The notes: generated from the sequence alone by a model not told the origin. Positions 9,922-39,526 are shown, counted from the first letter of the stretch. The stretch: 49,520 nucleotides of DNA from an uncultured Pseudobdellovibrionaceae bacterium (GCA_964653235.1 CAZZCP010000009.1:1-49520), one strand, 5' to 3'. A program made the numbers and translations.

Positions 9922-9945
9922 AAAAAAGAAAAAAACCTATCGGTT

Positions 9946-10197: not shown

Positions 10198-10210
10198 AAT
10201 TAAAACCTCG

Positions 10211-10786: not shown

Positions 10787-10802
10787 TTATACCATTATAT
10801 GG

Positions 10803-10829: not shown

Positions 10830-10837
10830 ACTTAAAC

Positions 10838-11170: not shown

Positions 11171-11703
11171 AAGAACCAAATTGGGAGAACTGCACAGAGA
11201 AAGATGTCTGGGAGTATGTCGGCTGGCATTTAGCTAAAAATGGTATAAACACCATCTTGGTTGGCGGAGCAGTTTGTGCCATATACTCTGGGGGAGCCTA
11301 TCAATCAGGAGACTTAGACTTCGTTGAGCTTACTTACCAAAAAGATGCGGTTCCTCAAATCATGGAGTCGATCGGTTTTAAAAAGACATTAGGTCGTCAT
11401 TACATCCATCCTAAATGCAATAAATTTGTCGAGTTTTGTGCGGGTCCCGTTGGGATTGGCGATGACATCAATATCAAACCTGATGAAAAAAAAGTTGCGG
11501 GGCAAACTCTATATATATTCTCGCCAACAGATTGCATTCGAGATAGATTGGCTTCGTATATCCATTTCAAAGCCCGTGAATGTTTGGACCAAGCAGCTTT
11601 GGTAGCAAAACGCCTTCCATTTAATCGTTCGAAAGTGAAGGAATGGTGTAAAAAAGAAGGTGCTCCACATGCCTATGATGAGTTGCTAAAGAAGCTAAAG
11701 TGA
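11167..11703 (+). CDS. small nucleotidyltransferase-fold protein (AbiEii-like or minimal NTase-like)
   Basis: ILVGGAVCAIYSGGAYQSGDLDFVE fits the Pol-beta NTase signature G[GS]x(9-16)DxD. Translationally coupled to the wHTH gene. Confidence 0.5.
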   Translation: MKEPNWENCTEKDVWEYVGWHLAKNGINTILVGGAVCAIYSGGAYQSGDLDFVELTYQKDAVPQIMESIGFKKTLGRHYIHPKCNKFVEFCAGPVGIGDDINIKPDEKKVAGQTLYIFSPTDCIRDRLASYIHFKARECLDQAALVAKRLPFNRSKVKEWCKKEGAPHAYDELLKKLK

Positions 11704-11976
11704 TCACTCATATACTTCTTTTCGATGAGCAATTTGAATTACAATCACTTTTTCTAAATTTTCATCAATTTTATAAATGATTCTGTAGTCTTCTACCCGA
11801 AGTCTTCTTAATCCTTTGAGTGAATGCCTGAGTGGTTTTCCGAATCGAATGGGATCGACTTGCAATTTCTTTTCAATCGCTTTTTTTATTTTTCTTTTTA
11901 CAGGTAAAGATAGCTTGGGTATCTGATTTTTTACAACATCAGGAAGATATAGAATCTCATACATATTTATGACCAA
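11704..11976 (-). CDS. RelE/ParE-family type II toxin
   Basis: LRRLRVEDYRIIYKIDENLEKVIVIQIAHRKEVYE is a classic RelE/StbE C-terminus. Alternative start ATG 11964 (MYEILYL). Confidence 0.85.
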   Translation of the reverse strand: MVINMYEILYLPDVVKNQIPKLSLPVKRKIKKAIEKKLQVDPIRFGKPLRHSLKGLRRLRVEDYRIIYKIDENLEKVIVIQIAHRKEVYE

Positions 11977-12212
11977 GCATCATCATGTTCAATCAGGTTC
12001 TGCTCATCCATTTCATCGATTGCTTTATCACCATGCTTTGAAAAATATAGGTCTTCTTGCATTTCAAGAGCCTCTTCCACAAGATCATGAGTCAGAGAGG
12101 AAACAGAGACCCCTCTTTTCTTTGCCAATTTATCGAGCTCTTTATGAACTTTGTCAGAAACAGGGATCTGGATTCTTTTTTTTGATGTAGGCAATTTAAA
12201 ACTCCTTTGCAT
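11967..12212 (-). CDS. ribbon-helix-helix antitoxin (RelB/CopG-like), partner of the RelE/ParE toxin
   Basis: RIQIPVSDKVHKELDKLAKKRGVSVSSLTHDLVEEAL is an RHH pattern, with an acidic C-terminus. Lies directly upstream of the toxin. Confidence 0.75.
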   Translation of the reverse strand: MQRSFKLPTSKKRIQIPVSDKVHKELDKLAKKRGVSVSSLTHDLVEEALEMQEDLYFSKHGDKAIDEMDEQNLIEHDDAWS

Positions 12213-12214
12213 TA

Positions 12215-12231
12215 GTGTACCAAAAGTACAC
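12215..12231. promoter_or_regulatory. palindromic operator candidate upstream of the RHH/RelE operon
   Basis: GTGTAC-caaaa-GTACAC inverted repeat immediately 5' of the antitoxin start codon. Confidence 0.3.
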
Positions 12232-12281
12232 CACTAAGTAAAGAAATAACCTACTGTGTGTCATTAGGGAGAGCAATACAA

Positions 12282-12311
12282 GCTGTGACTGACAACCTAA
12301 AGCCTTGAAAT
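12282..12311 (+). repeat. degenerate partial copy of the islet repeat
   Basis: GCTGTGACTGACAACCTAAAGCCTTGAAATG versus GGTGCCACTGACCACCTAAGCCCTTGAAAG in the full copies. The 3' tRNA-like tail is missing. Confidence 0.5.
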
Positions 12312-12438
12312 GCTAAAGATGTTCGAAGCATCCTATTTCGGATTTTTATGTCCGAGAATCCTTTTTTCGGATTTGTTAACGAATTTAGATGTAGATGAAT
12401 TTGGCTTGATCATTGCTAAACATAAACTAGGAGGATTT

Positions 12439-12798
12439 ATGAATAGTAGAAGTTCGAATTACAAAATTAGATTAATAAAGAAATCAAAAATAAATTTATC
12501 AATAGAAGATAGAATACAGAAATTAGAAAAAGAAATTGAAAAATTTAATAAGAAATCAAAATTTAAAAAAATCAGTAAAGATTCAATAGAATGCAAGACA
12601 GAGATAATGGCCTATTGTGGTGAAAGTATTGAAGGAAAACAAAGATTTGTTGAAATATATGGTGAAAACAGAGGTTTTGAAATAGCTGTGCCTACGTCTA
12701 TTTTAAATTTTCTATCTTATGGCGATACTTTCTTAATGACATTCGGACGAATAAATCTTTTTTACGAATTACTTTTTTGCAGTAAGCCCTATCAATAA
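12439..12798 (+). CDS. hypothetical protein, very AT-rich orphan
   Basis: Strong SD AGGAGG (12429-12434) before ATG 12439. Lys-rich N-terminal half. No motif recognised. The upstream extension to 12310 is unlikely. Confidence 0.45.
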   Translation: MNSRSSNYKIRLIKKSKINLSIEDRIQKLEKEIEKFNKKSKFKKISKDSIECKTEIMAYCGESIEGKQRFVEIYGENRGFEIAVPTSILNFLSYGDTFLMTFGRINLFYELLFCSKPYQ

Positions 12799-12890
12799 AT
12801 TCTTGTTTGATCCAATATTTGTAGCCGTTTGATTTTCAAAGAGAACTAAGAATAGATTTTTATCTGAATTTGAAAATACTCAATACTTAT

Positions 12891-13085
12891 TTAGGAAACC
12901 TTTAACTTAATTTTATGATCTGGTCTTACTTGACTGAGTAAACCTAGAAGACGGTCGGTACTTATGCCATCAATTCGGTGATGAAAAATTCGACTAAGAT
13001 CAGCTTCTGGAACACTCAAAGTTTCTGCAAGTTCGACATTCTTTAATTCATTCTCATGTTTATAGGCAAGAAGAGCTTGTAGTAT
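12891..13085 (-). pseudogene. XRE-family HTH antitoxin fragment lacking a start
   Basis: My own minus-strand translation gives ..NVELAETLSVPEADLSRIFHHRIDGISTDRLLGLLSQVRPDHKIKLKVS*. It is bounded upstream by an in-frame TAA (13086-13088), with no ATG, GTG or early TTG. Confidence 0.55.
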
Positions 13086-13260
13086 TTAGCTCTCAAAAGC
13101 AGCCTATTTGTCGCAAAGTATTCGTATCTACCAATTCACTTCTCGGGTTCAGCTCTATAACCATCCAGAAGCTTACAAGTTCTAGTTTAAGTTCATCATT
13201 TATAGTGTCGCTGTGTTTTTCTTCATAATGGGAGTCAATAATGACTTTTTCAAGTATCTT
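13043..13260 (-). pseudogene. 5'-truncated, frameshifted paralog of the toxin-like gene 10211..10531
   Basis: The minus strand reads KILEKVIIDSHYEEKHSDTINDELKLELV. After a frameshift it reads KLLDGYRAEPEK*IGRYEYFATN...KYYKLFL. This parallels RHYLEKHSSYLNDEIILELVTALDGG...LEYFAAD...KVYRLIWL. Confidence 0.5.
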
Positions 13261-13264
13261 TCAA

Positions 13265-13954
13265 TTAACCCGTCAGTTTTTCTAAGTCTGGCACAGCTTC
13301 AAGAGACTTCCAGATCCGAGTGGCCGTTGAAGTGTTACAGCCAGCAATTTTAGCTGCTTGATAAGCCGTTCTAGCATTCTCTGATGATTTTAGGTAGATG
13401 ATATCTGACCGATAATTCGAGCCAATCATTGCCCTAAGTTTTAACCAGGAGTGATTTTTTAGTATTCTTTCTAGGGTAAAAAACTTTTTAGGTGGCACCT
13501 CGTAAAATGCCCTTGTTTTAACTCCAAAGTGTAACAATGCGGGTTCAGCTCCCCACTGCTTTATAAGTGAGGCATGGCACTCACTTTTAGGTGGATTTGT
13601 CATTTTAAGGCGCGGCTTATGGAGTTTTTTAAATGCTAATTTATAACGGTGGTCTCCCATTTCGACAAACTTTTCGCAAAGAGCTATCAACAACACCAAC
13701 TCATCAGATGTTAAGAAGGAGTTTTGAGCCAAACTAATTAACCGCTCCACATGAATCAAGCTTGAAAGTCGGTGTTTTAAAAGAGAATACGTCATAAAAA
13801 ATATATCATTGTATTCCCAATAAAAACGAAGGCTTTCTAAAATAAACTTTTCAGGATCAACGGGTTCTATTACCTTTTTAAAATTAAAAGCACAGCCAAG
13901 CGAGGTCAATTTTTCTATTATTTCATCACTATGATACCTACCTGCCACGTTCAA
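13265..13954 (-). CDS. hypothetical protein with a C-terminal helix-turn-helix, downstream partner of an NTase
   Basis: C-terminal ENARTAYQAAKIAGCNTSTATRIWKSLE looks like an HTH. One Rx5H string (RLSSLIH, residues 62-68) is only weak HEPN-like evidence. Overlaps the upstream NTase gene by 17 nt. Confidence 0.5.
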   Translation of the reverse strand: MNVAGRYHSDEIIEKLTSLGCAFNFKKVIEPVDPEKFILESLRFYWEYNDIFFMTYSLLKHRLSSLIHVERLISLAQNSFLTSDELVLLIALCEKFVEMGDHRYKLAFKKLHKPRLKMTNPPKSECHASLIKQWGAEPALLHFGVKTRAFYEVPPKKFFTLERILKNHSWLKLRAMIGSNYRSDIIYLKSSENARTAYQAAKIAGCNTSTATRIWKSLEAVPDLEKLTG

Positions 13955-14543
13955 TGCTCCTCGATTGCTCTAAGACCTCTTTGAAGCAAAGATCGACAAA
14001 ATCCTTATCTGGTGGTTTTTTAAGGCTTAAAATCCAGGTTCTAGAAAACTCAAGCTCAAGCTCAAGCTCAAGCTTGTTAGGCTTAAGGTCGATGAGATCA
14101 TCTTTATCGACTTGAGTGTGCCTTGTGCAATAGGCATTAAATTTAGTAGCTATAATATCTTTTCGCCCTAAAGATTTAACGATTATGGCCTCGCCCTTAA
14201 AAATCTCTATGCTTCGTTTTTGCCAGGCCTCGGGAAAGCTTCTTGAAAGGATACGGCCGGCACTATTGAGCCAAGTCAGGTCCATTCCAAATTCTTCACC
14301 AATTTCACCAGCTATCGACTGCAAAGTAGTATCCATTTCAGGTTCTACAAGGTCAATATCGATCGTTGAGCGGTCTTTACGAGCGATTCCCTGGATGATG
14401 AGGGAGCCGCTACCAAAAATGGTAAATTCCTGAGTTATACCCTCATCTTTAAGTTTCTTGTCTAAAATGCTAAATAGTTCGTGAATATTCGTCCTATCAA
14501 TCATATTTCCCAGTTTATCATAAATATGTGTATTATAAAGCAT
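13938..14543 (-). CDS. minimal nucleotidyltransferase-fold protein (MntA-like)
   Basis: FTIFGSGSLIIQGIARKDRSTIDIDLVEP fits GSx(n)DxD. DIDLVEP resembles DLDFVEL in the NTase at 11167..11703. Confidence 0.55.
   Translation of the reverse strand: MLYNTHIYDKLGNMIDRTNIHELFSILDKKLKDEGITQEFTIFGSGSLIIQGIARKDRSTIDIDLVEPEMDTTLQSIAGEIGEEFGMDLTWLNSAGRILSRSFPEAWQKRSIEIFKGEAIIVKSLGRKDIIATKFNAYCTRHTQVDKDDLIDLKPNKLELELELEFSRTWILSLKKPPDKDFVDLCFKEVLEQSRSIERGR
14049..14072. repeat. hexanucleotide tandem repeat (CTCAAG x4) inside the NTase gene
   Basis: Four perfect copies, in frame, encoding (EL)n: KLELELELEF. Confidence 0.9.
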
Positions 14544-14596
14544 ATTCTAGTTGCATATAATTGATCTCACAAATTCACCGTGGTCACTATTGGGAG

Positions 14597-14660
14597 TGCC
14601 ACTTAGGTGCCACTGACCACCTAAGCCCTTGAAAGAATTCAGGGTGGGTCGATCGCCCCA
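14597..14660 (+). repeat. structured ~63-nt direct repeat, copy 2, with a tRNA-His 3'-end-like tail
   Basis: TGCCACTTAGGTGCCACTGACCACCTAAGCCCTTGAAAGAATTCAGGGTGGGTCGATCGCCCCA. Same two hairpins as copy 1. The last 23 nt match the tRNA-His 3' end at 17/23 and end in CCCCA. Confidence 0.8.
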
Positions 14661-14779
14661 ATAAATTAACCAGCATGAAAAAATAGTGAAGAATCTATTC
14701 TGAACGAGGAGTCCCGCAGCCAAAGGCTGCTAATTGCCAAATTTTTACACCTACATCCGTGAATAACTAAACTAAGTCA

Positions 14780-14807
14780 TTGACTTACTGTGCCAATGAC
14801 TTACACT
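14780..14807 (+). promoter_or_regulatory. candidate brnTA promoter with a direct-repeat operator
   Basis: TTGACT (14780-14785), a 16-nt spacer, then TACACT (14802-14807). TGACTTAC occurs twice (14781 and 14796). ATG 14813 is 5 nt after the -10, with no SD. Confidence 0.3.
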
Positions 14808-14812
14808 AGGTT

Positions 14813-15106
14813 ATGAAATTTGAATGGGACTCTAAAAAAGAAAAGCAAAATTTAAATAAACATGGAATCTCATTTGATGAAGCATCCAAGATTTTTAAGG
14901 GGCGAGCTGATTATTTGGAATTTTATGATGAGTCTCGTTCTGAAGATGAAGATCGCTTTATTGCCATTGGATCAATCGCAAAAGGGCTCATAGTTGTTGT
15001 TTATGTAGAACGGGATTTTGATGTTATTCGTATTGTTTCGGCAAGAAAAGCAACTCGGTCTGAAGTGGTTTTATTTAACGATTTTAAACGAGGAAAGAAT
15101 AAATGA
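14813..15106 (+). CDS. brnT: BrnT-family (DUF497) toxin
   Basis: MKFEWDSKKEKQNLNKHGISFDEASKIF...DEDRFIAIG...VVVYVERDFDVIRIVSARKATRSE matches the BrnT pattern. Confidence 0.85.
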   Translation: MKFEWDSKKEKQNLNKHGISFDEASKIFKGRADYLEFYDESRSEDEDRFIAIGSIAKGLIVVVYVERDFDVIRIVSARKATRSEVVLFNDFKRGKNK

Positions 15107-15384
15107 GAGAATTGACTAAAAATGATTTTAAACGAGCTATATCTGGGAAATTACGCAGAAAAATTGCCGCCGGTAAGATTGAATCTGGCAAAGACATTGC
15201 TCAGTTGCGAAAGTTTGTTGATCTTACTCAGGCTGAGTTTGCTGATGCAATGGGGATTAGCGTGTATACCTTAAGAAACTGGGAACAAGGAAGACGCGTC
15301 CCTGTAGGGCCGGCTCTTGCTCTTTTACGTATTGCTGCACGACACCCCAGGATTATCCGAGCGAATTTAAATACAGTGGCTTGA
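15103..15384 (+). CDS. XRE-family HTH antitoxin, partner of BrnT
   Basis: LTQAEFADAMGISVYTLRNWEQGRRVPVGPALALLRIAARHP. ATGA overlap with brnT. Confidence 0.8.
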   Translation: MRELTKNDFKRAISGKLRRKIAAGKIESGKDIAQLRKFVDLTQAEFADAMGISVYTLRNWEQGRRVPVGPALALLRIAARHPRIIRANLNTVA

Positions 15385-15486
15385 TAATCTTCTTTAAAGC
15401 AAGCATCCCTTCAAGGTACAAGGGGTCATTATGAAAAAGTCTTTTTTAGACTTAAGTATAATTTTGAGACAACCGATAGTATCAAT

Positions 15487-23156: not shown

Positions 23157-25271
23157 CTATATTTCTGCCTGAAAAGATAAAAAATATTCTCTCCCTCGAT
23201 TGGGCCCCCATGTGTGAAGGCCATCATAGTGTGCATGGTCAAAGTGCCAATGCCACATCGAAGGGCTATCCCCATATTTCACTTGTATTTCGTTAAGCAA
23301 ATTGGAAATTCCAAAAGTGAAAGTATAGTTTTCTGCTACAAGGTAGCTGATTGAAGTATCTAATATATAAAAACTCGGAGCTTTTTGATCTTTGACTTCA
23401 TCACCCCTTCTCTCTGGGGGAGGAAACTGTTTGCGATCAACAAGATGGTCAGGGTATCGACCGTAGCGGGCAAGATCGCGGGATCCAACAATACGAGCTG
23501 CAAAATTATGCGTCCAATTTCCAGTCTTGTAATTCGATTGCAACTGGTAGCGTCTTTCAATTGCTGCCGTGGGAAGCTTTTTGGTATATCCATCTTGGTA
23601 GCGAAAAAACTCAACACTCGCCTCTAACATCCAATTAGGACTGATTTGGTAGCCTAAGAGTAAGTCATGAGCCCAAATTTCATAATCTTCATTTGTATTG
23701 CGATAAAAAATGGGTTGTCCTTGTGACTCAAAACCAAAAGCCATATTCTGTAAATAAACATAGTGATTGCCAAAAGTAATGTAGTACTCAGGGTTATTGT
23801 AACTCAATGAATACACTGCTGAATGGGCTTTTTCAAGATCAGTGATATCAATCACATAACCACTTTCTTGGTTGCCGTGTTGAGACTCAAAAAAAGTAAG
23901 AGGAGCCCGGTAGCCTAAACCGTAAGAAAATCTCTGAGATAGATGATCCGTAAAATCTTGCCGCAGCTGAAGACGTGGTGCTGGTACAAACTCATTGATC
24001 TCATTGCTAAGATCGAGCCAGTTGATATAGACTTGATCGAGCCGAAGGGCAAAATCAATTTCTACTTTCTCAGATAGCATATAGGTATATTGAGCATAGA
24101 TCGCATTTGAATTGTGATTGAAGTCATCTTTCGGCAAGGCGAGCTGACCAAAGAGGACATCTGATTGAGAGCGCAAAAATTGCGACTTATGAAAAAGCCC
24201 CACTGTAAAAAAATGTGAGTCACCAAGATAGGTTTCATAGCTAAAATCTGAAACCAAAAGATTGTCATTGTGGGCGTAATCAAAGCCGTGCTGGTAGATC
24301 GCATCTTGGGCTTGGTGAGCATAACCCGTATTCCAGTTCAGGGTGCTCTTTTGACTTAAAAAATGGGTCCAATGTGCAGCTGCCTCGTATCTTTGAAGTG
24401 AAATCCAATCGGTGATTTTAAGCGGATCTCCGATAAAGTCTTTTTCTACATTACCGTCCACAAAGTCGGTTTCTAATGCAGAGATCTCTCTAACTCCATC
24501 TGGTTTTCTAGGATTTTCTGGTCCACCCAATATGGTGAGATCAGATACCCCTAAGCGAAAGCGAAGATCATTCTTGGCATTGGGTAAATAACGAGCCTTG
24601 AAAAGACCACTGATATTGTCTCTCTCTGGAGACTCGGCCACTCCATTTTCATCTTCATCCCATGTGTTTTGCTCGGTGTATTGAGCGCCAAAACTGAGTC
24701 CAAAATTCTTTTCGTTATTTGCTGTACTCACCAAAAAAGAATGATTGTTGGCAGTGCCATTACCGAAATCATCGATGCTCAAAGATGTTGAATAGATTTG
24801 CTTTTTGATCAAAGGATCGACTGTTAAGAGATCAAGGCTTCCACCAATTGCCTCGGGATTGCTAAGTGAAGCACCCGTACCACGCATCACTGCGATATCT
24901 TCAATGCCATTCACAGGAATGCTATCGACTCCATAAAAACTAGAAATGGCTGAATGCAGAGGTAGGCCATCGACTAGTATTGAAGTATGCTCGCCTTTCA
25001 AACCATTGATCGTTAAGCGCTTGGCTCCACAATTGGCACAATAGGTTTGTGCTTCAACACCCACCTGGTCTTTGACCAATTCAGACAATGTCTGTCTTTG
25101 TGCTTGTTTGAATTTTTCTTTCGATACCTTCTCTACTTTATAGGTCGAGTATTCTTCAATTGGTGATTTAAGTTGAGATTCGGTATCAATCAGAACCGTA
25201 GGGACCATTTCATCTGCTAAAGCAAGAGAGCAATTGAGTAAAAAAAGGCAGATGAAATAGTTCTTAAACAT
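23157..25271 (-). CDS. TonB-dependent outer-membrane receptor
   Basis: Signal peptide. Plug region YCANCGAKRLTINGLKGEHTSILVDGLPLH...AVMRGTGASL, then a ~550-aa barrel with alternating pattern. The C-terminus ...SFQAEI is not aromatic, which is slightly atypical. Confidence 0.85.
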   Translation of the reverse strand: MFKNYFICLFLLNCSLALADEMVPTVLIDTESQLKSPIEEYSTYKVEKVSKEKFKQAQRQTLSELVKDQVGVEAQTYCANCGAKRLTINGLKGEHTSILVDGLPLHSAISSFYGVDSIPVNGIEDIAVMRGTGASLSNPEAIGGSLDLLTVDPLIKKQIYSTSLSIDDFGNGTANNHSFLVSTANNEKNFGLSFGAQYTEQNTWDEDENGVAESPERDNISGLFKARYLPNAKNDLRFRLGVSDLTILGGPENPRKPDGVREISALETDFVDGNVEKDFIGDPLKITDWISLQRYEAAAHWTHFLSQKSTLNWNTGYAHQAQDAIYQHGFDYAHNDNLLVSDFSYETYLGDSHFFTVGLFHKSQFLRSQSDVLFGQLALPKDDFNHNSNAIYAQYTYMLSEKVEIDFALRLDQVYINWLDLSNEINEFVPAPRLQLRQDFTDHLSQRFSYGLGYRAPLTFFESQHGNQESGYVIDITDLEKAHSAVYSLSYNNPEYYITFGNHYVYLQNMAFGFESQGQPIFYRNTNEDYEIWAHDLLLGYQISPNWMLEASVEFFRYQDGYTKKLPTAAIERRYQLQSNYKTGNWTHNFAARIVGSRDLARYGRYPDHLVDRKQFPPPERRGDEVKDQKAPSFYILDTSISYLVAENYTFTFGISNLLNEIQVKYGDSPSMWHWHFDHAHYDGLHTWGPNRGREYFLSFQAEI

Positions 25272-25273
25272 TT

Positions 25274-25969
25274 TTAGTCGTGATCGTGGTCTTCACCAAT
25301 AAGAAAACTGCTTTCAACAACTTCTTGAGTTTGAAATTGATCGCACTCTAAATCGTGCCCATGGTTGCCATGTATCGTACGAAGCACCATATAAATAGCT
25401 TGATCCAATACTCCCGCTTCAGTCGTTAATGTACTCTCACCATGAAGAACTTTATGCAGACTCTCTTCGAAATCCTCTGAATCTGTAGAATTAAAATCAA
25501 TGCGAATGAACTGCTCTAGATTTCCTGTTTGCTCATAAACTGTTAAATCATTCGGGTTCGCTTCGCCCTCTGATTCCTCTAAGTCGATCGAAACCAAAGA
25601 GAGATTTGTATTGGGTTGATTGCTGTCTGCCGCAAAATACTGGTTTCTTCTTTCGTTAAACATGAAAAAATAAGCTTCTTCGACACTAGGGCTATGTCCA
25701 TCAGCAAACGGATAGTCTACTTTTATCAGGAGCTCATGCTCAGCGCCATGTTCTTCACCTTCTTCGTGAGTATGCTCTTCTTCGTATTCGGCAATATAGA
25801 AACTACAAGAATTTCCATCACCATCTTTTCCAGTGTATTTTAAGGCATTTAGAATTACTTCTTGGCCTCTAGGACCATCATTAGGCCTTGGATTGGAATC
25901 ACTTTGACTACAAGCAGAAAAGTAGAGCATTGAGGATAAGACTAAAAAAAACTTCATCAAGACATTCAT
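25274..25969 (-). CDS. His/Glu-rich lipoprotein, first gene of the receptor operon
   Basis: Lipobox YFSACSQ. Metal-binding-looking clusters EEEHTHEEGEEHGAEHE, HGNHGHD and a C-terminal EDHDHD. Confidence 0.7.
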   Translation of the reverse strand: MNVLMKFFLVLSSMLYFSACSQSDSNPRPNDGPRGQEVILNALKYTGKDGDGNSCSFYIAEYEEEHTHEEGEEHGAEHELLIKVDYPFADGHSPSVEEAYFFMFNERRNQYFAADSNQPNTNLSLVSIDLEESEGEANPNDLTVYEQTGNLEQFIRIDFNSTDSEDFEESLHKVLHGESTLTTEAGVLDQAIYMVLRTIHGNHGHDLECDQFQTQEVVESSFLIGEDHDHD

Positions 25970-25988
25970 TTTGACTCCCTTACTTATT

Positions 25989-26007
25989 GCGAATGATTTG
26001 CATTAAG
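25989..26007. promoter_or_regulatory. candidate Fur-family box in the divergent intergenic region
   Basis: GCGAATGATTTGCATTAAG matches the 19-bp Fur consensus GATAATGATAATCATTATC at 12/19 by eye, with an AATG..CATT inverted core. It lies between the lipoprotein and TonB starts. Confidence 0.4.
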
Positions 26008-26055
26008 ATGATTTTGGGTTATAGTGTCATAGCCGCTGAGTTGCAAGGGCTTTTT

Positions 26056-26658
26056 ATGAAATTTAACAAATACTTACTATTGAGCTTGCTCTTTCATTTG
26101 CTGTTTTTTTCACTTTTCTTTTTTGAGAAAAAAAACCAAAAAATGGCCACTAACAGCTATGTTTTTGTTGAACTCACTTCTGGTTCTCTACCCCCTAAAA
26201 CCGCTTCAAAAAAACAAAAGACAAAAGCAATACCCGATTTACAGCAAGGAATAAAAGTAAAAACCAAAAAGCTGGTGACAAGATCTTCTTCCATTTCAAA
26301 AGAAGCTGCCCGAAAAGGAATAAAGAGCAATTCTTTTTTAAAAGAGCAAATAGGTCGTCAATCTGCTCAATCTTACTCTGAAGAACTGAAAGTTTTTCTC
26401 GAACAAAACAAAAAATATCCAAGACTTGCCCAACGACTCAAGCAGAGTGGTACGGTTACTCTAAGAGTAAAGATTTATGCCGATGGACGCTTTGGAAATG
26501 TTGAAATCTTAAATGAATCGCCTTTTGATAGTCTCAATCAAGCCGCTGTCGATCTTTTAAAATCACTGGGCCGTTTCAAGCCTTTGCCGCAAAGTTTTGA
26601 ATCTGAAGAAAACTTTGTAATCCCGATTGCCTACCGCATGGATGCAAGCAGAATATGA
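26056..26658 (+). CDS. tonB: TonB-family energy transducer
   Basis: N-terminal TM (LLLSLLFHLLFFSLFFF), a Lys-rich linker, and a C-terminal YPRLAQRLKQSGTVTLRVKIYADGRFGNVEILNESPFDSLNQAAVDLL typical of the TonB C-terminal domain. Confidence 0.75.
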   Translation: MKFNKYLLLSLLFHLLFFSLFFFEKKNQKMATNSYVFVELTSGSLPPKTASKKQKTKAIPDLQQGIKVKTKKLVTRSSSISKEAARKGIKSNSFLKEQIGRQSAQSYSEELKVFLEQNKKYPRLAQRLKQSGTVTLRVKIYADGRFGNVEILNESPFDSLNQAAVDLLKSLGRFKPLPQSFESEENFVIPIAYRMDASRI

Positions 26659-27071
26659 AACTTCTTTTTCTCTTTTTTTTGCCTAATATTCTATTTGCTG
26701 ATGTCTATGTGAAAAGCTTAACGAGTGCTGAAACAAAGAAGCTTTCTAGTTTGCAAAAACCACCGAGTCTAATTCTTTTGTTTCAAAGCAATTGTCAGGC
26801 CTGTAAGAAGCAAATTAAAGACTTGTATTGCCTTGAAGATAAAATCCGCATCCAGCTTTTTGCAAGCCAGGGAAGTGAAAAAGAGCTTCAAAGAGAATAT
26901 TTGGGCTTTCATGTAGATTATCCTGCTTTCTATGCTAGTGAAGACATTTTAAAGGCTCTAGATATCCGAGAGGACTCTACCCCACAAATCTTATATCAGG
27001 GAGAAGACAAGAAAATGAGATTTTTGGGCTACCAAAGCTGCATATCGCTTCAAAAAGCCATGGGGATTTGA
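26655..27071 (+). CDS. secreted thioredoxin-fold protein (CxxC)
   Basis: Signal peptide, then LILLFQSNCQACKKQ with a CxxC motif. ATGA overlap with tonB. Confidence 0.55.
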   Translation: MKLLFLFFLPNILFADVYVKSLTSAETKKLSSLQKPPSLILLFQSNCQACKKQIKDLYCLEDKIRIQLFASQGSEKELQREYLGFHVDYPAFYASEDILKALDIREDSTPQILYQGEDKKMRFLGYQSCISLQKAMGI

Positions 27072-33275: not shown

Positions 33276-34496
33276 CTAGTAATAGATCATCGAAGTAAGC
33301 AAGAGACTTTGCGTATTTCTGTAGTTATTGCCATCAAATCCTGTTTCTATTAGATTGCTATCTCTTTTGGTGAGATCATAAAAAAGACCTAGGCGAATAT
33401 TGTGCCCCTTCATATACCAATTCAAGCCGAAAACAGTTGAAGTCAAACTAAAATTATCTGCTTGATGAAAGCGGTCCCACTCTTCATAGCGAAAGTAAGG
33501 CGCTAAGTAAGATAGCGAAGTGAAAACATACTCCCCTTCAAGATAAAAACCATCTGAGCTTCCGTAATTGAGACTGGTAGCACTCATATCTTCAATTGCA
33601 CCTTCAAAACGAAAATACTCGCCTTGAAGTAAAAGAGATTTGTAGTGAAAACTGATCTCTCCATTCCAGAGAGTGCGGGTGATTTCATTGTCGTTTGATA
33701 AACCATCGGTAAACTTGATGTTGGAGGTTTGAAATACACCTCCACCAAATGAAAAATGCTTTCCTTTACCAAAATAGGTATCACGAACCTTTTTGTCTTC
33801 CCAGCCCTTGAAAGGATAAATACGAAGTTTTGTACCGATCATAAAATTTTGTGCTGTAATAGAATCCGCTTCATCTCCGTTGGCATCGGTTAAGTCGCCA
33901 CTGTAAACCCCGTCACCAGCCACCAATTGAAAATAAAAATAATCATAAAAACCCAAAAGCTGAACATTGGTGGCACGTCGATTTTGGTTTACAAAATCAG
34001 AGGCTTCTTCGGCAATGTGAGCCCGCTCAAGAAAAATCAATTTTGACGAACTAACGGTTTGTGAGCGTGAGACATCGACTTTTGCTCTAAGAAAACGAAA
34101 CTTTAGTTTTTCTTGGCCAAAGACATTAGCCACTTCAAAGTAGGCATCACCGACATTGAAATCTTTCTCGCCTTTATCTTCTTTATTGGCTTTATCATTT
34201 CGAATATCCATATAAAATCTAAAGTCTTCTTTATAAGAGGCCTCTACCTGAAAGCGTGTTCGACGAATAAATGCATCTTGCAATTGAAGGTCACTGTCTG
34301 CGTCAGTAGCCCCAATTTTCTCTTGATGCTTCGCTATTGCTTGAAATCGGGTTCCGATTCGAAATTGAATGGGCGAATCTTCTGGTACCGGAATCGCAAC
34401 ACCCCACTCTTTTCGTTCTTTTCCCAAAATATAATCTTGGGCATAACTATAATAGCTTGAGGTAAAAATAAAAAATAAGATCCAAAACAATTTCAT
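33276..34496 (-). CDS. outer-membrane porin-like beta-barrel protein
   Basis: Signal peptide and a 400-aa alternating-strand pattern. Possibly OprO/P-like (FRIGTRFQ, RRTRFQVE), but this is not verified. Confidence 0.5.
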   Translation of the reverse strand: MKLFWILFFIFTSSYYSYAQDYILGKERKEWGVAIPVPEDSPIQFRIGTRFQAIAKHQEKIGATDADSDLQLQDAFIRRTRFQVEASYKEDFRFYMDIRNDKANKEDKGEKDFNVGDAYFEVANVFGQEKLKFRFLRAKVDVSRSQTVSSSKLIFLERAHIAEEASDFVNQNRRATNVQLLGFYDYFYFQLVAGDGVYSGDLTDANGDEADSITAQNFMIGTKLRIYPFKGWEDKKVRDTYFGKGKHFSFGGGVFQTSNIKFTDGLSNDNEITRTLWNGEISFHYKSLLLQGEYFRFEGAIEDMSATSLNYGSSDGFYLEGEYVFTSLSYLAPYFRYEEWDRFHQADNFSLTSTVFGLNWYMKGHNIRLGLFYDLTKRDSNLIETGFDGNNYRNTQSLLLTSMIYY

Positions 34497-34862: not shown

Positions 34863-35396
34863 TTAGTAAGAATCAAGGCACATTTGTCTTTGCTCTTCTC
34901 TTTGCGCAGCATTTAGATTTGAGAAATTGATTATTTCTTGAATAGGTGAACTGTATTCGGGGGTTTCATTTGACCCGATAGTCCAGCGTAGAGTCCAACA
35001 TCCTGGCATGGATTGCAAATTGAGTTCTCGAAGCAAATACTTGTTTGAATCTGCTTGAAAGAAAAACTGAGAATTGGCTCCGTGGCTATGTCCATGCATC
35101 ATCCACATCCATGGAAAAACCCGAAAGCCATCTATTGCAAGCAAAGTTTGTTTGGGATCTTCACTTAGCCAAATCGAAATTTCAGCTTGTGAAAAAAGGC
35201 GATCACGCGAGCTTGTAGAATTTGGGTTCAGAAAGGGCGAATCTTGGTTGCTCAAATGAAACATCCCTCTTTGCCTCTTCTCTGCTTTGAGCCACTCGAT
35301 CTGCATACAATATGTATCGCCCTCTACCTGAAACGAATAGGGACAATTCGCATTTGCTAAAAATGGTATTAGAATTAACATAAAAAACTTCTTCAT
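34863..35396 (-). CDS. periplasmic YtkA/FixH-like protein with a Met/His cluster
   Basis: Signal peptide and the motif FRVFPWMWMMHGHSHGAN. Last gene of a five-gene operon. Confidence 0.55.
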   Translation of the reverse strand: MKKFFMLILIPFLANANCPYSFQVEGDTYCMQIEWLKAEKRQRGMFHLSNQDSPFLNPNSTSSRDRLFSQAEISIWLSEDPKQTLLAIDGFRVFPWMWMMHGHSHGANSQFFFQADSNKYLLRELNLQSMPGCWTLRWTIGSNETPEYSSPIQEIINFSNLNAAQREEQRQMCLDSY

Positions 35397-35408
35397 TCTC
35401 TCTCTCCT

Positions 35409-36299
35409 TTAAAATATTTCATAGCCAAAGTTAAAGTTCATACTGCGATTTAAAATACTGTTTTTTGCCGGACCAATCAAAGTTTGGTCTGAATAGTTCA
35501 GCCCTACAGAAATAGATTCATCAATCGATTTTTGTAATCCCAAAAGCAAAGTAAAGTTTTGCGAAACTTCTGATTCTCGATTGACTGGCTGAATTTTTCT
35601 TGGGCTTAAATGATTGAAGGTCAGGCCAGAATTAAAACCTAGGCCCCAAAGATTACTAGCATAATTCATCAATACGGCGGCAGAGGAATCATAGAAGTTC
35701 GATACATTTGTATCGCCAAAATCTCTTGCAAAAATCCGCAGGCTTCGAAGCTGCAAAGTAAGTGAAAATGGAAAGTAGACTTTGCGAAAGCTTAGTCCGA
35801 CTCCCGTACCCCACTGGTTGTGACCCGTGACATCTGCTCCCTCTCCCAATTCATTTGTTTGAAAAATGGATTTGCCAGTAGGAAGATTGAGAAGAGCTGA
35901 AATGTATATGATGGGCTTCCAGTAGGAAAAAGAGTATTCAGGTAGAAGTTCAAAATTGTAGCCAACAAGAGTATCTGCCCAATGGGTAGAATAAGAATCC
36001 ATGCTTAGATCTTGGTAGTGCCCCTGTAGATAGGAGCTGTTCAAAAAGTACTGATGCCTTTCGCCAATACTGCCTGCAATATTTAAGTTGATCGATTGTA
36101 TTTCGCGCACACGATCATCCCACAAGTAAAAAGCATCACTTGCTAAAATTCGGCCCTCGGCACGCAAAAAAGCATAGCTGGTATTTATGCTCAGTTTTTG
36201 CTGCATTTGCAATACAGTAAAACTGGCAGGACTTTGCCCGCAGCAAGAGTTGGCCTCAGCTAAAGACAAACTAAAAAGAATTAAAAAAACATAAACCAT
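35409..36299 (-). CDS. outer-membrane beta-barrel protein with an N-terminal Cys-Cys
   Basis: Signal peptide ...SLAEA, then NSCCGQSP. Alternating strand pattern and a terminal ...NFGYEIF. The start overlaps the upstream gene by 19 nt. Confidence 0.6.
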   Translation of the reverse strand: MVYVFLILFSLSLAEANSCCGQSPASFTVLQMQQKLSINTSYAFLRAEGRILASDAFYLWDDRVREIQSINLNIAGSIGERHQYFLNSSYLQGHYQDLSMDSYSTHWADTLVGYNFELLPEYSFSYWKPIIYISALLNLPTGKSIFQTNELGEGADVTGHNQWGTGVGLSFRKVYFPFSLTLQLRSLRIFARDFGDTNVSNFYDSSAAVLMNYASNLWGLGFNSGLTFNHLSPRKIQPVNRESEVSQNFTLLLGLQKSIDESISVGLNYSDQTLIGPAKNSILNRSMNFNFGYEIF

Positions 36300-36715
36300 T
36301 CGACCTTCTCTATAATATTGGAATCGAGATCAATGATTCGAACTTCATTGAGCCAGTCTCGAGGCATATTGAATTTGATATTTCGATTGATATAAATACC
36401 CTTACTCTCTCTCTCAAACCAACCTTCATCTTCCATTGGGTGGCCCATGCTAGGCATTGTAGACCAGAATTCTAATTCTAAATTTTCACCAAGATCTTTA
36501 AGCTCACCAGCCTGATGCAAGATGACCATTAAAGTATTATTGGTTTTAGGATTGCCGTAAGGGCCATCCAACCATATGGCCTTGACCTGTAAATTATTTT
36601 TTTGAAAACTGAGTTTAGATTGAGAATTGGGATTACTCTCAGTATCACCCTCAATCCGATGATTCATTGGAGAGTCACAAGCGATCAAAAAAAACAAAAA
36701 GACAAGATATTTCAT
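36281..36715 (-). CDS. YtkA/FixH-like lipoprotein with a Met/His motif
   Basis: Lipobox LIACDSP and the motif FWSTMPSMGHPMEDEG. TAATG overlap with the upstream thioredoxin-fold gene. Confidence 0.55.
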   Translation of the reverse strand: MKYLVFLFFLIACDSPMNHRIEGDTESNPNSQSKLSFQKNNLQVKAIWLDGPYGNPKTNNTLMVILHQAGELKDLGENLELEFWSTMPSMGHPMEDEGWFERESKGIYINRNIKFNMPRDWLNEVRIIDLDSNIIEKVEWFMFF

Positions 36716-37233
36716 TAAAATCTCCTGATGTAACAGCCTAGACTTCGACCATGTTTATAAGGAAGATCTCTACCTTCAAAAAGCGCCAAAAGATTTTCTT
36801 GCAAATAGCGCCTACTTGATTTTGAAAAATCTCTCTGATTCGATAATCCCCCTTCATAGAGTCTTTTGTATTTGCCATTGGATTGTCTTTTTAAAAGAAC
36901 AATATGAGGGGTTTTTAAAGCATTAAAGTCTCTTATTAAAACTTGCTGAGGGTCTTTGAGAAGAGAAAATGAAAATCGATCGGCTGTAAAGTAGTCTTGA
37001 ATTAGCTTTTGATACTCTACACTATCAACAATAACCCCATGAAAAGAGACCTCTTTATATTTTTCTTGTAGATCATTGAGATGCTCGACATGGCTTCTTG
37101 AGCAAGGGCATAGCACCGATAAGAAAACAATGACTTTATACTCAGACCTATTGGCATAAAAAGACTCAGGAGCCTGATAGCTCATCGCCCATAAACATGT
37201 AGAATAAAAAAGCAGAAAAATACTTTTCACCAA
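36715..37233 (-). CDS. secreted thioredoxin-fold (TlpA/AhpC-TSA-like) protein
   Basis: KVIVFLSVLCPCSRSHVEHLNDLQEKY...TPHIVLL...GRSLGCYIRRF resembles redoxin-family proteins that end in GCxIK-like motifs. The active site reads CPC. Confidence 0.6.
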   Translation of the reverse strand: MVKSIFLLFYSTCLWAMSYQAPESFYANRSEYKVIVFLSVLCPCSRSHVEHLNDLQEKYKEVSFHGVIVDSVEYQKLIQDYFTADRFSFSLLKDPQQVLIRDFNALKTPHIVLLKRQSNGKYKRLYEGGLSNQRDFSKSSRRYLQENLLALFEGRDLPYKHGRSLGCYIRRF

Positions 37234-37263
37234 AACTCCTATAAAAATGAAAGAAACAACGAA

Positions 37264-37662
37264 TTAAATGAAAAGGCTAAAAGGTGGTGCGCGTCCCCGG
37301 AATGCCTCTCTTAAAAAAGAGAAAAACTGCTCCTCGTAAACAAGTCTAAAGACTTGAGCTTTTAGAATAGAGAAGAGTGAATCTGTCTGAAAACTTACAG
37401 ACTTATGCTTTTTTAGATTTTGATGTAAATTCAATAAACTTACTGCAAAGTCGGAACAAAGACTGGTTTTTGGTAGTTTCAGCTTGGCCTCAGCAAAAGT
37501 GATGCAATCTAAATCATTTGACTCTGTCGAGCCAGACAAGAAAACATTTTGGTAATACCACTTTTCTGCAAAGTCAGAGTAAGAAAGAAGATTTACTCCT
37601 AAAAGCAAAAAGAAAATGAGCCATAGGCCTTGGGGTATAGTTTGTTTATTCTTTGTTTTCAC
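37264..37662 (-). CDS. small single-pass membrane protein, first gene of the operon
   Basis: 132-aa ORF with one TM (GLWLIFFLLLGVNLL). No motif recognised. Confidence 0.45.
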   Translation of the reverse strand: MKTKNKQTIPQGLWLIFFLLLGVNLLSYSDFAEKWYYQNVFLSGSTESNDLDCITFAEAKLKLPKTSLCSDFAVSLLNLHQNLKKHKSVSFQTDSLFSILKAQVFRLVYEEQFFSFLREAFRGRAPPFSLFI

Positions 37663-37756
37663 TAGCCTGAGAATTAGATCATATCACCCAAATTGTCTAG
37701 AGAAATCCCGATTTTCGGCCAGCAAAGTCTTTTTTGCAGAATACCGATCTACTAGA

Positions 37757-39526
37757 GTGACGTATTACCTTGTAATTTTAGCTCTTTTTTTAAACTCTTG
37801 CGGCTCTGGTATTGGTGGGGGGTCAAGCTCATTTGTTGAGATTGTTGACAACACACCCGCTCCGACTTCTTTGAGTTATGCTCGATCGCGTTATACCCTT
37901 GTTTCTGGTGAAGTCATGAATCCAATTGCTCCAATTTACTCTGGAGAACCTGCAAACTTTTCGGTAAGCCCTAGTTTACCTACTGGTATTGATATTGACA
38001 CACAAACGGGAGTGATTTCGGGCACTCCCTTGCCAGGGGGCGAGTCGATTGTGCCAACATCCTACACAGTGACTGTTAGCAACTTAAAAGGAAGCTTAAG
38101 CTTTAATCTAGATATACGAAAACTAAATGGCTATGTAGTCAATAGCACATTAGACACAAGTGATTTTGCCAATGACGGGCTTTGTGATGATGGTGCGGGA
38201 AACTGCAGTCTTCGCGCTGCTGTTGAACAAGCAAATCTGAGCCCGGGCACACAGGCGATTTTAGTTCCTTCAGGAACCTATAATACAACGAGTGTAATCT
38301 TAATTGATAGTTTGATGGTGATCTACGGCGAAAACGATGGCACAGCAACAACAATTGACGGAAACGGGAACCCCATCTTTGAAGTTTCAAATCCTATAGC
38401 AGGTGCGCAATTTGAATTTCTAAGCCTTCGAGCCGGCAACCCGATCTTCAAATTTAGCAATACGGGCAACTTTTTTATGAACAATCTTGAACTGCAAGAC
38501 TCAAGTTCATCAGGTGAATCAGCAGCTATAGAAATTACCCAAGGCCTTGATTTAAGTATTGTATCTAGCCTTTTTTCAAATCTAACTGCCGCCAGTACCG
38601 GTGGAGCTGCGATTCGTATCGGAAATGCTGCCGCCAATGTAAATCTGGATACATGTAGTTTTAAAGGCAACTCAACCACAACGTCTGGCGGAGGAGGTGC
38701 CATTCGAAACGATGGAACACTCTCTATTCAGAATAGTTTTTTTCAAAACAATATTTCTGCAGCTTCAGGTGGAGCGATCTTTAATACCAGCAGCCTCACT
38801 ATTGAAGAGACAGAGTTTTACAATAACCAAAGTGCAGCTGGGTCTAGTGGTGGAGCTTTGTATTGCGCTGGAACAAGCTGTTATGTTACCACAAGTACAT
38901 TTGTCAACAATACCGCACCTGAGGGAGCTGGCATCAATGCAAATTGCGGAGTTGGAACTTGCATTATTGATAGATCTTATTTTGCTGGCAACAATGCCTC
39001 ATTAAATGGAGGTGCTATTCTTGCTGTCTCAGACTTAAATGCTACTAACAATCTTTTTTATGCCAATTCAGCAGTGAACGGAAGTGCCATCTATGATGAT
39101 GGTTTTAATGTAGCGCTATTCTACAATAGCTTTGTGCAAAACAATACTTCGACCGGTGGGGCTGTAGAAGCACAAGGTGGATCAGCAAACATCGATCTTG
39201 AAGGCAATCTTATGGTTTCGCAAATTGGAGATGATTGTGCTTTGGGTGGCGGTGGATTCATTTTAAACACTGGAGATAATGTATTTACAAGTCCAGCAAC
39301 GGCTTGCAGTCCTATTGGTAGCGATGCAACTTCTGCTACAGTCAACTTTGAATCAGGCTTAATCCCTGTAGACAATGGGGGCCCCACTTTAAGTTTTCGC
39401 CTCGCTCCAGGATCTGATGGTGTGGATCACCGCACAAGCGGATCGAATTGTCCCTCGCAGGACCAGCTTGGAAACCCGCGCTTTTTGGGTTTGGAGTGTG
39501 ATGCAGGTTCTGTGGAAAGCCACTAG
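37757..39526 (+). CDS. beta-helix lipoprotein with Pmp-like GGAI/FxxN repeats and an N-terminal Ig-like domain
   Basis: GTG 37757 gives VTYYLVILALFLNSCGSG (lipobox). Also present: SVSPSLPTGIDIDTQTGVISGTP (putative Ig), CSLRAAVEQAN, and repeated GGAI/GGAL plus F..NN segments. The stop codon TAG lies on the MITE boundary. Confidence 0.7.
   Translation: MTYYLVILALFLNSCGSGIGGGSSSFVEIVDNTPAPTSLSYARSRYTLVSGEVMNPIAPIYSGEPANFSVSPSLPTGIDIDTQTGVISGTPLPGGESIVPTSYTVTVSNLKGSLSFNLDIRKLNGYVVNSTLDTSDFANDGLCDDGAGNCSLRAAVEQANLSPGTQAILVPSGTYNTTSVILIDSLMVIYGENDGTATTIDGNGNPIFEVSNPIAGAQFEFLSLRAGNPIFKFSNTGNFFMNNLELQDSSSSGESAAIEITQGLDLSIVSSLFSNLTAASTGGAAIRIGNAAANVNLDTCSFKGNSTTTSGGGGAIRNDGTLSIQNSFFQNNISAASGGAIFNTSSLTIEETEFYNNQSAAGSSGGALYCAGTSCYVTTSTFVNNTAPEGAGINANCGVGTCIIDRSYFAGNNASLNGGAILAVSDLNATNNLFYANSAVNGSAIYDDGFNVALFYNSFVQNNTSTGGAVEAQGGSANIDLEGNLMVSQIGDDCALGGGGFILNTGDNVFTSPATACSPIGSDATSATVNFESGLIPVDNGGPTLSFRLAPGSDGVDHRTSGSNCPSQDQLGNPRFLGLECDAGSVESH

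Follow-up and report, generated by a model that had tools for sequence, protein, structure and literature searches.

A five-gene envelope cassette from Bdellovibrionota with a candidate role in soft-metal handling

Gene organization

We analysed a 49,520-nucleotide (nt) stretch of DNA from an uncultured Pseudobdellovibrionaceae bacterium (GCA_964653235.1, CAZZCP010000009.1:1-49520; hereafter the window), which carries a single copy of a compact cassette of five minus-strand open reading frames (ORFs) at positions 34863-37662. The genes are numbered g1 to g5 in the order of transcription, and all window positions are counted from its first letter (Table 1). An original prediction, made from the sequence alone, had described them as a tightly packed envelope operon that might handle soft metals or thiols. 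Its coordinates and spacing are borne out: we read a gap of 30 nt between g1 and g2, a TAATG junction with one base common to g2 and g3, an overlap of 19 nt between g3 and g4, and a gap of 12 nt between g4 and g5 that contains AGGAGA. The g3 and g4 genes are translationally coupled. Every motif that it had quoted was also found, namely the hydrophobic segment of g1, the CPC of g2, MPSMGHPMEDEG in the Met/His region of g3, the NSCCGQ of g4, and PWMWMMHGHSHG in the Met/His region of g5, a protein with four cysteines.

Scans of the cassette proteins against Pfam and NCBIfam recognized g2 alone and placed g1, g4 and g5 in no family. All five proteins and their relatives are annotated as ‘hypothetical’, and we found no database record of the exact g4 sequence. 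The sequencing runs that hold the sequence are all metagenomic DNA from microbial mat, with no RNA runs among them.

Table 1. Genes, motifs and other features of the window
Feature	Position	Strand	Remark
g1	37264..37662	-	132 amino acids (aa); small single-pass membrane protein
g1 C-terminal motif	37264..37290	-	RGRAPP in the window copy
g2	36715..37233	-	172 aa; predicted secreted thioredoxin-fold protein of PRX-like1/DUF6436 type
g2 motif C42-P-C44-S-R-S-H48	37090..37110	-	C42, P43, C44, S45 and H48 invariant (35/35); candidate metal or redox site
g2 C-terminal G166-C167	36733..36738	-	Invariant (35/35); aligns with GC of 2cvb and 2ywi
g3	36281..36715	-	144 aa; lipoprotein with a predicted divergent YtkA-like beta-sandwich domain
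g3 lipobox L-I-A-C13	36677..36688	-	C13 40/41, S15 39/41, P16 40/41
g3 post-Cys tether, residues 13-21	36653..36679	-	C-x-S-P-(L/M)-(L/N)-x-H
g3 motif M87-P-S-M-G-H92-P-M	36434..36457	-	M87 38/41, P88 39/41, H92 39/41
g3 motif N-M117-P-R-D-W121	36353..36370	-	M117, G119 and W121 each 37/41
g4	35409..36299	-	296 aa; predicted 12-stranded outer-membrane beta-barrel, FapF/COG4313 superfamily
g4 mature N-terminus N-S-C19-C20-G-Q	36234..36251	-	Follows a signal-peptidase I site after AEA; Cys pair is the family signature
g4 motif N-L-P-T-G-K-S	35868..35888	-	P140, T141, G142 and S144 invariant in the narrow clade; PTG also in FapF (PMC5557850)
g5	34863..35396	-	177 aa; predicted secreted beta-sandwich protein, g3 paralog
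g5 motif P-W-M97-W-M99-M-H-G-H103-S-H105-G	35079..35114	-	M97 and M99 27/27, H103 25/27, H105 26/27
g5 motif M130-P-G-C133-W134	34995..35009	-	M130 and W134 27/27; counterpart of g3 NMPxxW
g5 C-terminus	34863..34880	-	Ends ...CLDSY
OMP-like ORF	33276..34496	-	406 aa; signal peptide
Repeat-containing ORF	37616..39526	+	636 aa; divergent from g1
TonB-dependent receptor region	23157..27071		About 10 kb from the cassette
Run of short paired ORFs	~9900..15400		80-230 aa each

Conservation and distribution

The cassette is conserved at two depths. In a narrow clade around the window copy, we found 73 homologs of g4, which share 41-60% identity with it and are all without annotation; those with an organism name come from metagenome-assembled genomes (MAGs) of Bdellovibrionales. 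Scanning GTDB with each species represented by one genome returned 20 loci, all from Bdellovibrionales or Pseudobdellovibrionaceae. Among 22-23 non-redundant related loci, those that cover g2-g3-g4-g5 all have the genes in this order; 19 of 22 narrow-clade loci have an overlap of exactly 19 nt between g3 and g4; and in every narrow-clade locus g2 is preceded by an ORF of 118-168 aa. No conserved neighbourhood beyond the five genes was found in the narrow-clade loci.

The wider g4 family was recovered by a profile search that covered 1.84 billion representative proteins and yielded 407 clusters (50% identity) at E<=1e-3, 292 of them at E<=1e-10; most of the best 150 of the 407 matches are full-length, at about 300 aa. 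All organism-named members belong to Bdellovibrionota (a Bdellovibrionota MAG, a Pseudobdellovibrionaceae MAG and Bacteriovorax sp. BSW11_IV), and the last of these is a cultured carrier (WP_021272310.1). Distant members, with 20-30% identity to g4, retain cassette neighbourhoods, as in L027 (g1-g2-g3-g4-g5), L030 (g2-g3-g4-g5), L053 (g2-g3-g4) and L054 (g3-g4-g5). We annotated 21 metagenomic loci with iterated hidden Markov models, using a six-sequence alignment subset as the scan query. In nearly all of these loci that cover the upstream region, the gene directly before g4 is of g3 type; the exception is L038, where g2 is followed by an extended g4 ORF of 408 aa. The g2 gene precedes g3 in eleven of these loci, and g5 is missing from several core cassettes (L028, L053).

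Since the metagenomic and distant loci keep g2, g3 and g4 while g5 and g1 vary, we conclude that the conserved unit is a g2-g3-g4 core, with g5 frequent and g1 confined to some clades. The original prediction would have been refuted had the five genes not been kept together elsewhere, and in this respect the comparison does not refute it, as the genes are co-conserved. The conservation of gene order, overlap and motifs makes the operon more than a chance arrangement.

The outer-membrane barrel

The original prediction had called g4 a beta-barrel outer-membrane protein (OMP), and this assignment can be extended, as g4 is no orphan barrel but a relative of the polypeptide channel FapF, with a similarity that can be detected in the sequence. 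An AlphaFold2 model built from a 27-sequence alignment is a 12-stranded barrel, with a predicted local distance difference test score (pLDDT) of 80 and a predicted template-modelling (TM) score of 0.76. A Foldseek search with this model placed FapF first (E 1.4e-13, TM score 0.69-0.72) and the COG4313 channel Pput2725 (4rl8) next (E 7e-9). The wide g4-family profile matches the FapF sequence itself (E 4.4e-16, 62 bits), and the motifs DRWQ, GD..YEFL.E, PTG and TG.G.W are common to both. From the profile match and the common motifs it follows that the relationship of g4 to FapF is one of homology, beyond a shared fold. The profile of the narrow clade alone gave no FapF match, and the window g4 matched no Pfam family, PF13557 included; one g4 relative has a weak match to that family (Phenol_MetA_deg).

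The distinctive feature of the family is a pair of adjacent cysteines at the mature N-terminus. Among 208 full-length family members only four lack the pair, all of them N-terminally truncated ORF calls; in 187 of the other 204 barrels these are the sole cysteines, as are C19 and C20 in the window copy. In a diverse alignment of 38 sequences, the invariant residues besides Met1 are the two cysteines and one glutamine. The original prediction had made its case depend on conservation of the Cys-Cys and Met/His motifs, and both are kept. Upstream of the pair stands A-x-A followed by (A/S/N)(S/A/P), a signal-peptidase I site that would cleave two residues before the first cysteine. We also considered a lipoprotein reading of this N-terminus and rejected it, given that position -1 is often Pro, position -2 is often Asn and the A-x-A site lies two residues upstream.

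The mature chain of g4 has about 19 residues ahead of strand 1, with no coiled coil, linker or helical plug. In COG4313 channels, which are implicated in the uptake of hydrophobic compounds, the N-terminal ~14 residues fold into the lumen and occlude the barrel (PMC4493636). FapF also has a luminal plug, and its substrates are encoded in its own operon and cross unfolded (PMC5557850). By analogy, we infer that the X-X-C-C-G segment of g4 would sit in the pore.

The paired YtkA-type proteins

The tethered lipoprotein g3 and the soluble g5 form the second element of the cassette. In 41 g3 sequences, the positions conserved in at least 90% include W48 and, from the motifs in Table 1, the lipobox Cys, S15-P16, M87, P88, H92, M117, G119 and W121. 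The N-M-P loop and the Met/His loop together make up a putative Met3-His(+Trp) site. In three distant variants, the MPSMGH loop is exchanged for HQHPQQCC, HHRCEIECC or MPSGCCG. As one soft-ligand set here replaces another at the same position of the loop, we take the swap as strong evidence, at the level of sequence, for a candidate metal site in g3.

The label YtkA-like, which the original prediction had given to both proteins, stands at the level of the family and not for the window copies, as neither the window g3 nor the window g5 matches Pfam YtkA (PF13115; gathering threshold 25.9 bits) even at E<=10. Among narrow-clade g3 orthologs, 11 of 23 have sub-threshold YtkA matches in register over the Met/His region; ten that were scored individually reach at most 17.6 bits. 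In the wider cassettes, the g3 of L042 passes the threshold with 36.2 bits, others score 25.7, 25.5, 24.2 and 24.0, and the family consensus scores 24.6. Because orthologs match below threshold and wider members reach the cut-off region, we assign g3 as a divergent YtkA-like lipoprotein, a label held at the family level and drawn from these profile scores.

For g5, a word-based search with the single sequence gave one relative, and an alignment query was needed to collect the family. In 27 sequences C18, C30 and W35 are invariant along with M97, M99, M130 and W134, and H103 and H105 are nearly so. Comparison of the g3 and g5 families with hhalign gave a probability of 97.8% (E 1e-12) for the wide alignments and a weak 22% for those of the narrow clade. 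The alignment pairs M-x-M...H of g5 with M..MGH of g3, and M-x-G-C-W with NMxGxW. We therefore regard g5 as a paralog of g3, tied to YtkA via g3 alone. The two proteins have a YtkA-type beta-sandwich domain in common, in which a Met-x-Met...His...Met-x-G-x-Trp constellation is conserved. AlphaFold2 predicts a beta-sandwich with a C-terminal helix for g5 (pLDDT 93.6). Foldseek found no close solved structure for this model, returning generic Ig-like matches with TM scores of at most 0.36, and sequence searches of the PDB with g3 and g5 found nothing.

The two proteins differ in two respects. The lipobox Cys of g3 (Table 1) indicates a membrane tether, whereas g5 has a signal-peptidase I signal and hence would be soluble; and while conserved His and Met occur in both, most g5 orthologs, unlike g3, end in a His-rich tail (GHHHH, HHDHSHH, SGHHHHH, GHNHGH). 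The window g5 is without such a tail.

The tether that follows the lipobox Cys of g3 is kept family-wide and may serve docking to the barrel, or sorting. In many cases the residue at position +2 is Asp or Glu, a signal that would keep a lipoprotein in the inner membrane of E. coli. Variant cassettes in which g3 has Cys-Cys/His motifs in place of MPSMGH lie in L047 (5364-7828), L048 (4150-6324) and L040 (5343-8180). They contain an unannotated upstream coiled-coil protein of 246-308 aa with a conserved H-x-x-L-H motif, which stands in for g2 in L047 and L048 but precedes g2 in L040.

The thioredoxin-fold protein and g1

The g2 gene encodes a signal peptide and a C42-P-C44 motif. The window protein has a marginal match to Pfam AhpC-TSA (26.9 bits, cut-off 26) and a match to DUF6436 (E 4e-5), and on four thioredoxin-type Pfam models the family consensus exceeds the cut-off each time, with 42.9, 34.7, 34.3 and 33.8 bits. 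Searched against the PDB, the family profile matches 2cvb (1e-12) and 2ywi (4e-9), with the CP, the TP (cis-Pro) and the C-terminal GC aligned. The closest solved relatives are the uncharacterized PRX-like1 proteins 2CVB, 2YWI and 3U5R, and these profile matches identify g2 as a predicted secreted thioredoxin-fold protein of PRX-like1/TlpA-like type. In addition to the motif residues in Table 1, S39, T108 and P109 are invariant in all 35 sequences; H51 is kept in the narrow clade only. Assignment of g2 as a Sco protein was considered and rejected, as there is no match to SCO1-SenC (PF02630) at E<=1 and the motif is C-P-C-S-x-x-H with a C-terminal G-C, not CxxxC...H.

The g1 protein has one hydrophobic segment (residues 8-32), one conserved Cys and a C-terminal motif that reads (S/R)G(L/R)(S/A)PP when the window copy is included, and is otherwise weakly conserved and present in some clades only. 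Its narrow-clade orthologs can be aligned, although they are too divergent for detection by tblastn. They have the transmembrane segment and the single Cys in common, and their C-terminal motif is (S/T)GL(S/A)PP-like.

Genomic context in related bacteria

The layout had been described as unlike cop, pco, cus or mer operons and as free of metal-export and regulatory genes. Both statements are correct for the window, where we found no P-type ATPase, multicopper oxidase, RND pump, PcoB/CopB, CusF, MerT/P/A or dedicated regulator within ~10 kb. The second does not extend to all relatives. In L001, a MerR-type regulator and an HMBD P-type ATPase lie beside g5 as a separate divergent unit, and in L005 an HMA P-type ATPase, NnrS, Rrf2 and COX1 are found upstream. 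NosDFYL machinery is likewise absent from the window. In L028 and L029, genes for a NosL-like protein, NosD, an ATP-binding cassette (ABC) ATPase and an ABC-2 permease precede g2-g3-g4, all in one direction and with gaps or overlaps of 3-16 nt, and in L041 NosF/NosY-like genes adjoin g4. At 132-3929 of L028, whose contig begins just before the Nos-like genes, and also in L029, the NosL-like domain forms one protein with an N-terminal membrane region of several helices.

Pfam scans of 115 + 90 pooled flanking proteins revealed no fixed partner beyond the cassette, as no family occurs in more than 4 members. Redox genes are sporadic neighbours (glutathione peroxidase at 2 loci, Pyr_redox_2 at 2+2, Rrf2 at 2, globin at 2, rhodanese at 3 and glutathione S-transferase at 1). 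A search for a conserved operator upstream of g1 gave no signal, the best 8-mer (one mismatch) occurring at 13 of 19 loci compared with 11-14 in shuffles.

Comparison with known systems

Among the known systems closest to the cassette is the CtaK-Sco pathway. YtkA is CtaK, a lipoprotein of B. subtilis with conserved His and Met and a C-terminal -EEEHSHHH (PMC9145763), which acts with the thioredoxin-fold copper chaperone Sco in the assembly of CuA, a role held elsewhere by PCuAC (PMC9145763, PMC13344008). CtaK and YcnJ, both from Bacillus, are the only YtkA domains that have been studied experimentally (PMC12362106). The cassette and this pathway share a tethered YtkA-type lipoprotein with His and Met and an extracytoplasmic thioredoxin-fold partner bearing Cys and His, and the tail of CtaK resembles the HHHH-type tails of most g5 orthologs. 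The cassette reproduces the CtaK-Sco pairing, in that g3 is a YtkA-type lipoprotein, its paralog g5 has a His tail in most orthologs and g2 is a thioredoxin-fold protein with Cys and His, and it adds a barrel. It differs in being Gram-negative, with a translationally coupled outer-membrane barrel and two YtkA-type paralogs; in a partner of PRX-like1/DUF6436 type with CPC...H...GC instead of the CxxxC...H of Sco; and in the lack of linkage to cytochrome oxidase genes, save loosely in L005. In Proteobacteria, PCuAC-Sco(-TlpA) is the functional analogue of CtaK-Sco. The PRX-like1 structures share with g2 the fold, the first Cys (CP...), the cis-Pro (TP) and the C-terminal G-C-x-I-K/R, whereas the additional Cys, the invariant His six residues on, the secretion and the place in a cassette are particular to g2.

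Among barrels, FapF (Pseudomonas amyloid secretion, PDB 5O65) resembles g4 in strand number, profile homology, PTG and other barrel motifs and, for g4 by analogy, an N-terminal element that enters the lumen. In place of its coiled coil, linker and helical plug, g4 has the short X-X-C-C-G terminus, and the cassette has putative metal-binding proteins as partners where the Fap system has FapA-E and a C39 peptidase. A 12-stranded barrel of monomer size is also seen in Pput2725 of COG4313, where a short N-terminal segment occludes the lumen from the periplasm. The invariant Cys-Cys occurs in g4 only, the window g4 lacks the PF13557 match of the COG4313/Phenol_MetA_deg group, and its context is non-catabolic.

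PcoB/CopB, OprC/NosA and CusF/CopC are comparable in their proposed job of moving copper across the outer membrane with Met/His periplasmic carriers, and in NosA there is an earlier example of a copper channel in the outer membrane that goes together with nos accessory genes. None has a sequence or Pfam relationship to the cassette. OprC/NosA are TonB-dependent and the cassette barrel is not, and its predicted ligand is an N-terminal vicinal Cys pair, as opposed to the Met/His tracts or Cys-His-Met2 site of known outer-membrane copper proteins.

Proposed function

We propose that the operon may be an envelope relay for a thiophilic metal, most plausibly Cu(I), between the outer membrane and the periplasm, a favoured reading that we rate at slightly less than an even chance. 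That the substrate is some thiophilic or borderline metal is likely; that it is copper specifically, moving through the barrel, is possible, with the balance tipped a little towards the negative. The soft-metal reading put forward by the original prediction is partly supported by the family-level YtkA/CtaK membership of g3, the paralogy of g5 and the Nos-like and P-type ATPase neighbours in relatives, while the FapF homology of g4 opens a protein-export alternative. Met-rich sites are a classic periplasmic ligand set for Cu(I) and Ag(I), as in CusF, CopC and PCuAC.

In the proposed relay, the N-terminal segment of g4 would fold into the barrel lumen, as in COG4313 channels and FapF, and its thiolate pair would bind a soft metal (Cu(I)) in the pore or act as its gate. 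Docked at the periplasmic mouth, the g3 lipoprotein would exchange Cu(I) with the Cys-Cys site via its Met/His loop. The g5 protein might buffer the metal or pass it on, with the His-rich tail helping in most orthologs, and g2 might carry it in a Sco-like manner (Cys/Cys/His), or keep the exposed cysteines reduced as TlpA does. The g1 protein would be an accessory membrane anchor in some clades. The direction of transfer is the weakest step of the proposal. Of supply to periplasm-facing cuproenzymes and detoxification we favour the former, because the cassette is found throughout the phylum in variable contexts, as expected of a housekeeping function, and is not consistently tied to efflux genes. 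A broader version, in which the cassette would constitute a TonB-independent outer-membrane route for copper or soft-metal uptake across Bdellovibrionota, with a FapF-type barrel gated by a vicinal-Cys plug that hands the ion to a YtkA-type lipoprotein and then to a thioredoxin-fold carrier, is speculative and on balance doubtful.

Several observations weigh against copper relay. FapF, the closest characterized relative of g4, exports unfolded polypeptides, not ions, and g2 is outside the Sco family, with CPC rather than CxxxC. Because AlphaFold2 leaves residues 1-24 of g4 unplaced (pLDDT <50), the location of the Cys pair in the lumen is argued by analogy alone. Flanks are heterogeneous across ~40 loci, with copper-related neighbours a minority, and Pfam and NCBIfam scans of ~10 kb around the window cassette detected no copper gene. 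The most recurrent regulatory neighbours are Fur-family regulators: in L016 the cassette has one as its direct neighbour; in L047, whose g3 bears the His/Cys form of the loop, one overlaps g4 by 13 nt at the stop codon; and in L005, L006 and L024 one lies with ZnuABC a few genes downstream. Copper sensing is not known from any Fur-family member, and for this reason some cassette variants at least may serve another metal.

The same Fur-family and Znu genes are what commends a relay with a different cargo, in which the machinery would take up Zn(II), Ni(II)/Co(II) or another borderline metal under metal limitation. The His-rich tails and the Cys/His cluster of g2 (C42, C44, H48, C167) would suit Zn or Ni, the g3 variants of L047 and L048 carry His/Cys and not Met, and we infer that the N-terminal X-X-C-C could form a planar N2S2 site. 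Met is, however, an unusual ligand for Zn or Ni, and three Met positions are kept in both g3 (37-38/41) and g5 (27/27). The only characterized YtkA-domain members, CtaK and YcnJ, have roles in the handling of copper, which is also the metal suggested by the NosDFY and CopA-type contexts; and unrelated genes separate the Znu genes from the cassette, in three related genomes only. We consider such a cargo unlikely. Homology to FapF raises the alternative that g4 is itself a polypeptide exporter, which would export or surface-display g5 and/or g3 for metal capture outside the cell, with g2 keeping the cysteines of the exported proteins reduced and their chains unfolded for passage. Profile, motifs and fold all match FapF, whose substrates come from its own operon, as noted above; a Cys pair is found in g5 and in most wider-family g3, next to a conserved thioredoxin-fold partner, and g3 has a long conserved N-terminal tether. 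We nonetheless find export improbable. The FapF coiled coil, linker and helical plug are missing from g4, no FapD-like C39 peptidase or amyloid-type repeat protein is present, several core cassettes have no g5, g5 itself is modelled with confidence as a compact sandwich, and the invariant Cys-Cys of the barrel has no role in this model.

A system without metal, in which the g4 pair is a redox switch serviced by g2 and the Met-rich proteins are oxidant sinks or sensors, or in which reactive sulfur species are handled, would agree with the peroxiredoxin/TlpA type of g2, with redox genes among the neighbours and with adjacent Fur-family proteins that could be PerR-like. These neighbours are no more consistent than the metal-related ones, though, and g2 lacks CxxC, its invariant His one helix turn past CPC suggesting a ligand over a catalytic dyad. 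The Met/His-to-Cys-Cys swap, the His-rich tails and the YtkA homology are hallmarks of metal sites, and we judge a purely thiol-based role to be quite improbable. Least credible of all, and very unlikely in our view, is that g4 is an ordinary COG4313-type channel for uptake of a hydrophobic small molecule, with the lipoprotein as periplasmic receiver. The fold match to 4rl8, the weak Phenol_MetA_deg match in one relative and the compounds attributed to COG4313 channels (PMC4493636) would fit this role, but it leaves the Cys-Cys, the Met/His/Trp sites, the His-rich tails and the thioredoxin-fold partner unexplained, and no catabolic genes are consistently linked among the pooled flanking proteins.

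How copper passes over the outer membrane to periplasm-facing enzymes is poorly understood in most bacteria; apart from PcoB/CopB, which is debated, the known routes are limited to a small number of TonB-dependent receptors. Relays of periplasmic copper chaperones are a known kind of system, as are FapF/COG4313 barrels; what is new is their combination and the Cys-Cys signature of the barrel. We found no description of a cassette of this kind in the literature on YtkA, DUF6436, COG4313 or Bdellovibrio copper. A predatory phylum, Bdellovibrionota, carries a compact, unannotated module of a Cys-Cys channel, two putative Met/His carriers and a Cys/His thioredoxin-fold protein, whose pattern of ligands is strictly conserved. 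If the copper relay is correct, the module would represent a new type of outer-membrane metal channel and a Gram-negative counterpart of the CtaK-Sco pathway. The broader, more doubtful version with a gated uptake route would in addition supply the first outer-membrane partner for the YtkA/CtaK domain and an instance of a FapF/COG4313 barrel scaffold recruited for metal-ion selectivity.

Other features of the window

The surroundings of the window cassette give no clue to its function; they comprise a PMP-repeat/choice-of-anchor-Q lipoprotein encoded divergently upstream, unannotated proteins and an S8 peptidase. The OMP-like ORF lies 366 nt downstream of g5, ends in ...MIYY and has no Pfam or NCBIfam match; we considered it as a sixth member of the cassette and rejected it, as it never adjoins the cassette in other genomes. 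The divergent upstream protein has He_PIG, Chlamydia-PMP repeats, CSLREA and choice-of-anchor-Q domains. As listed, its ORF overlaps the start of g1 by 47 nt, and an internal lipobox (...FLNSCGSG) suggests that the true start is further downstream.

The more distant receptor region encodes a TonB-dependent receptor of 704 aa, an upstream lipoprotein of 231 aa, a protein with a TonB C-terminal domain and a small CxxC protein. A like pair of lipoprotein and receptor is found in L016, directly beside the cassette and the Fur-family gene. The run of short paired ORFs is apparently the toxin-antitoxin islet mentioned in the original prediction.

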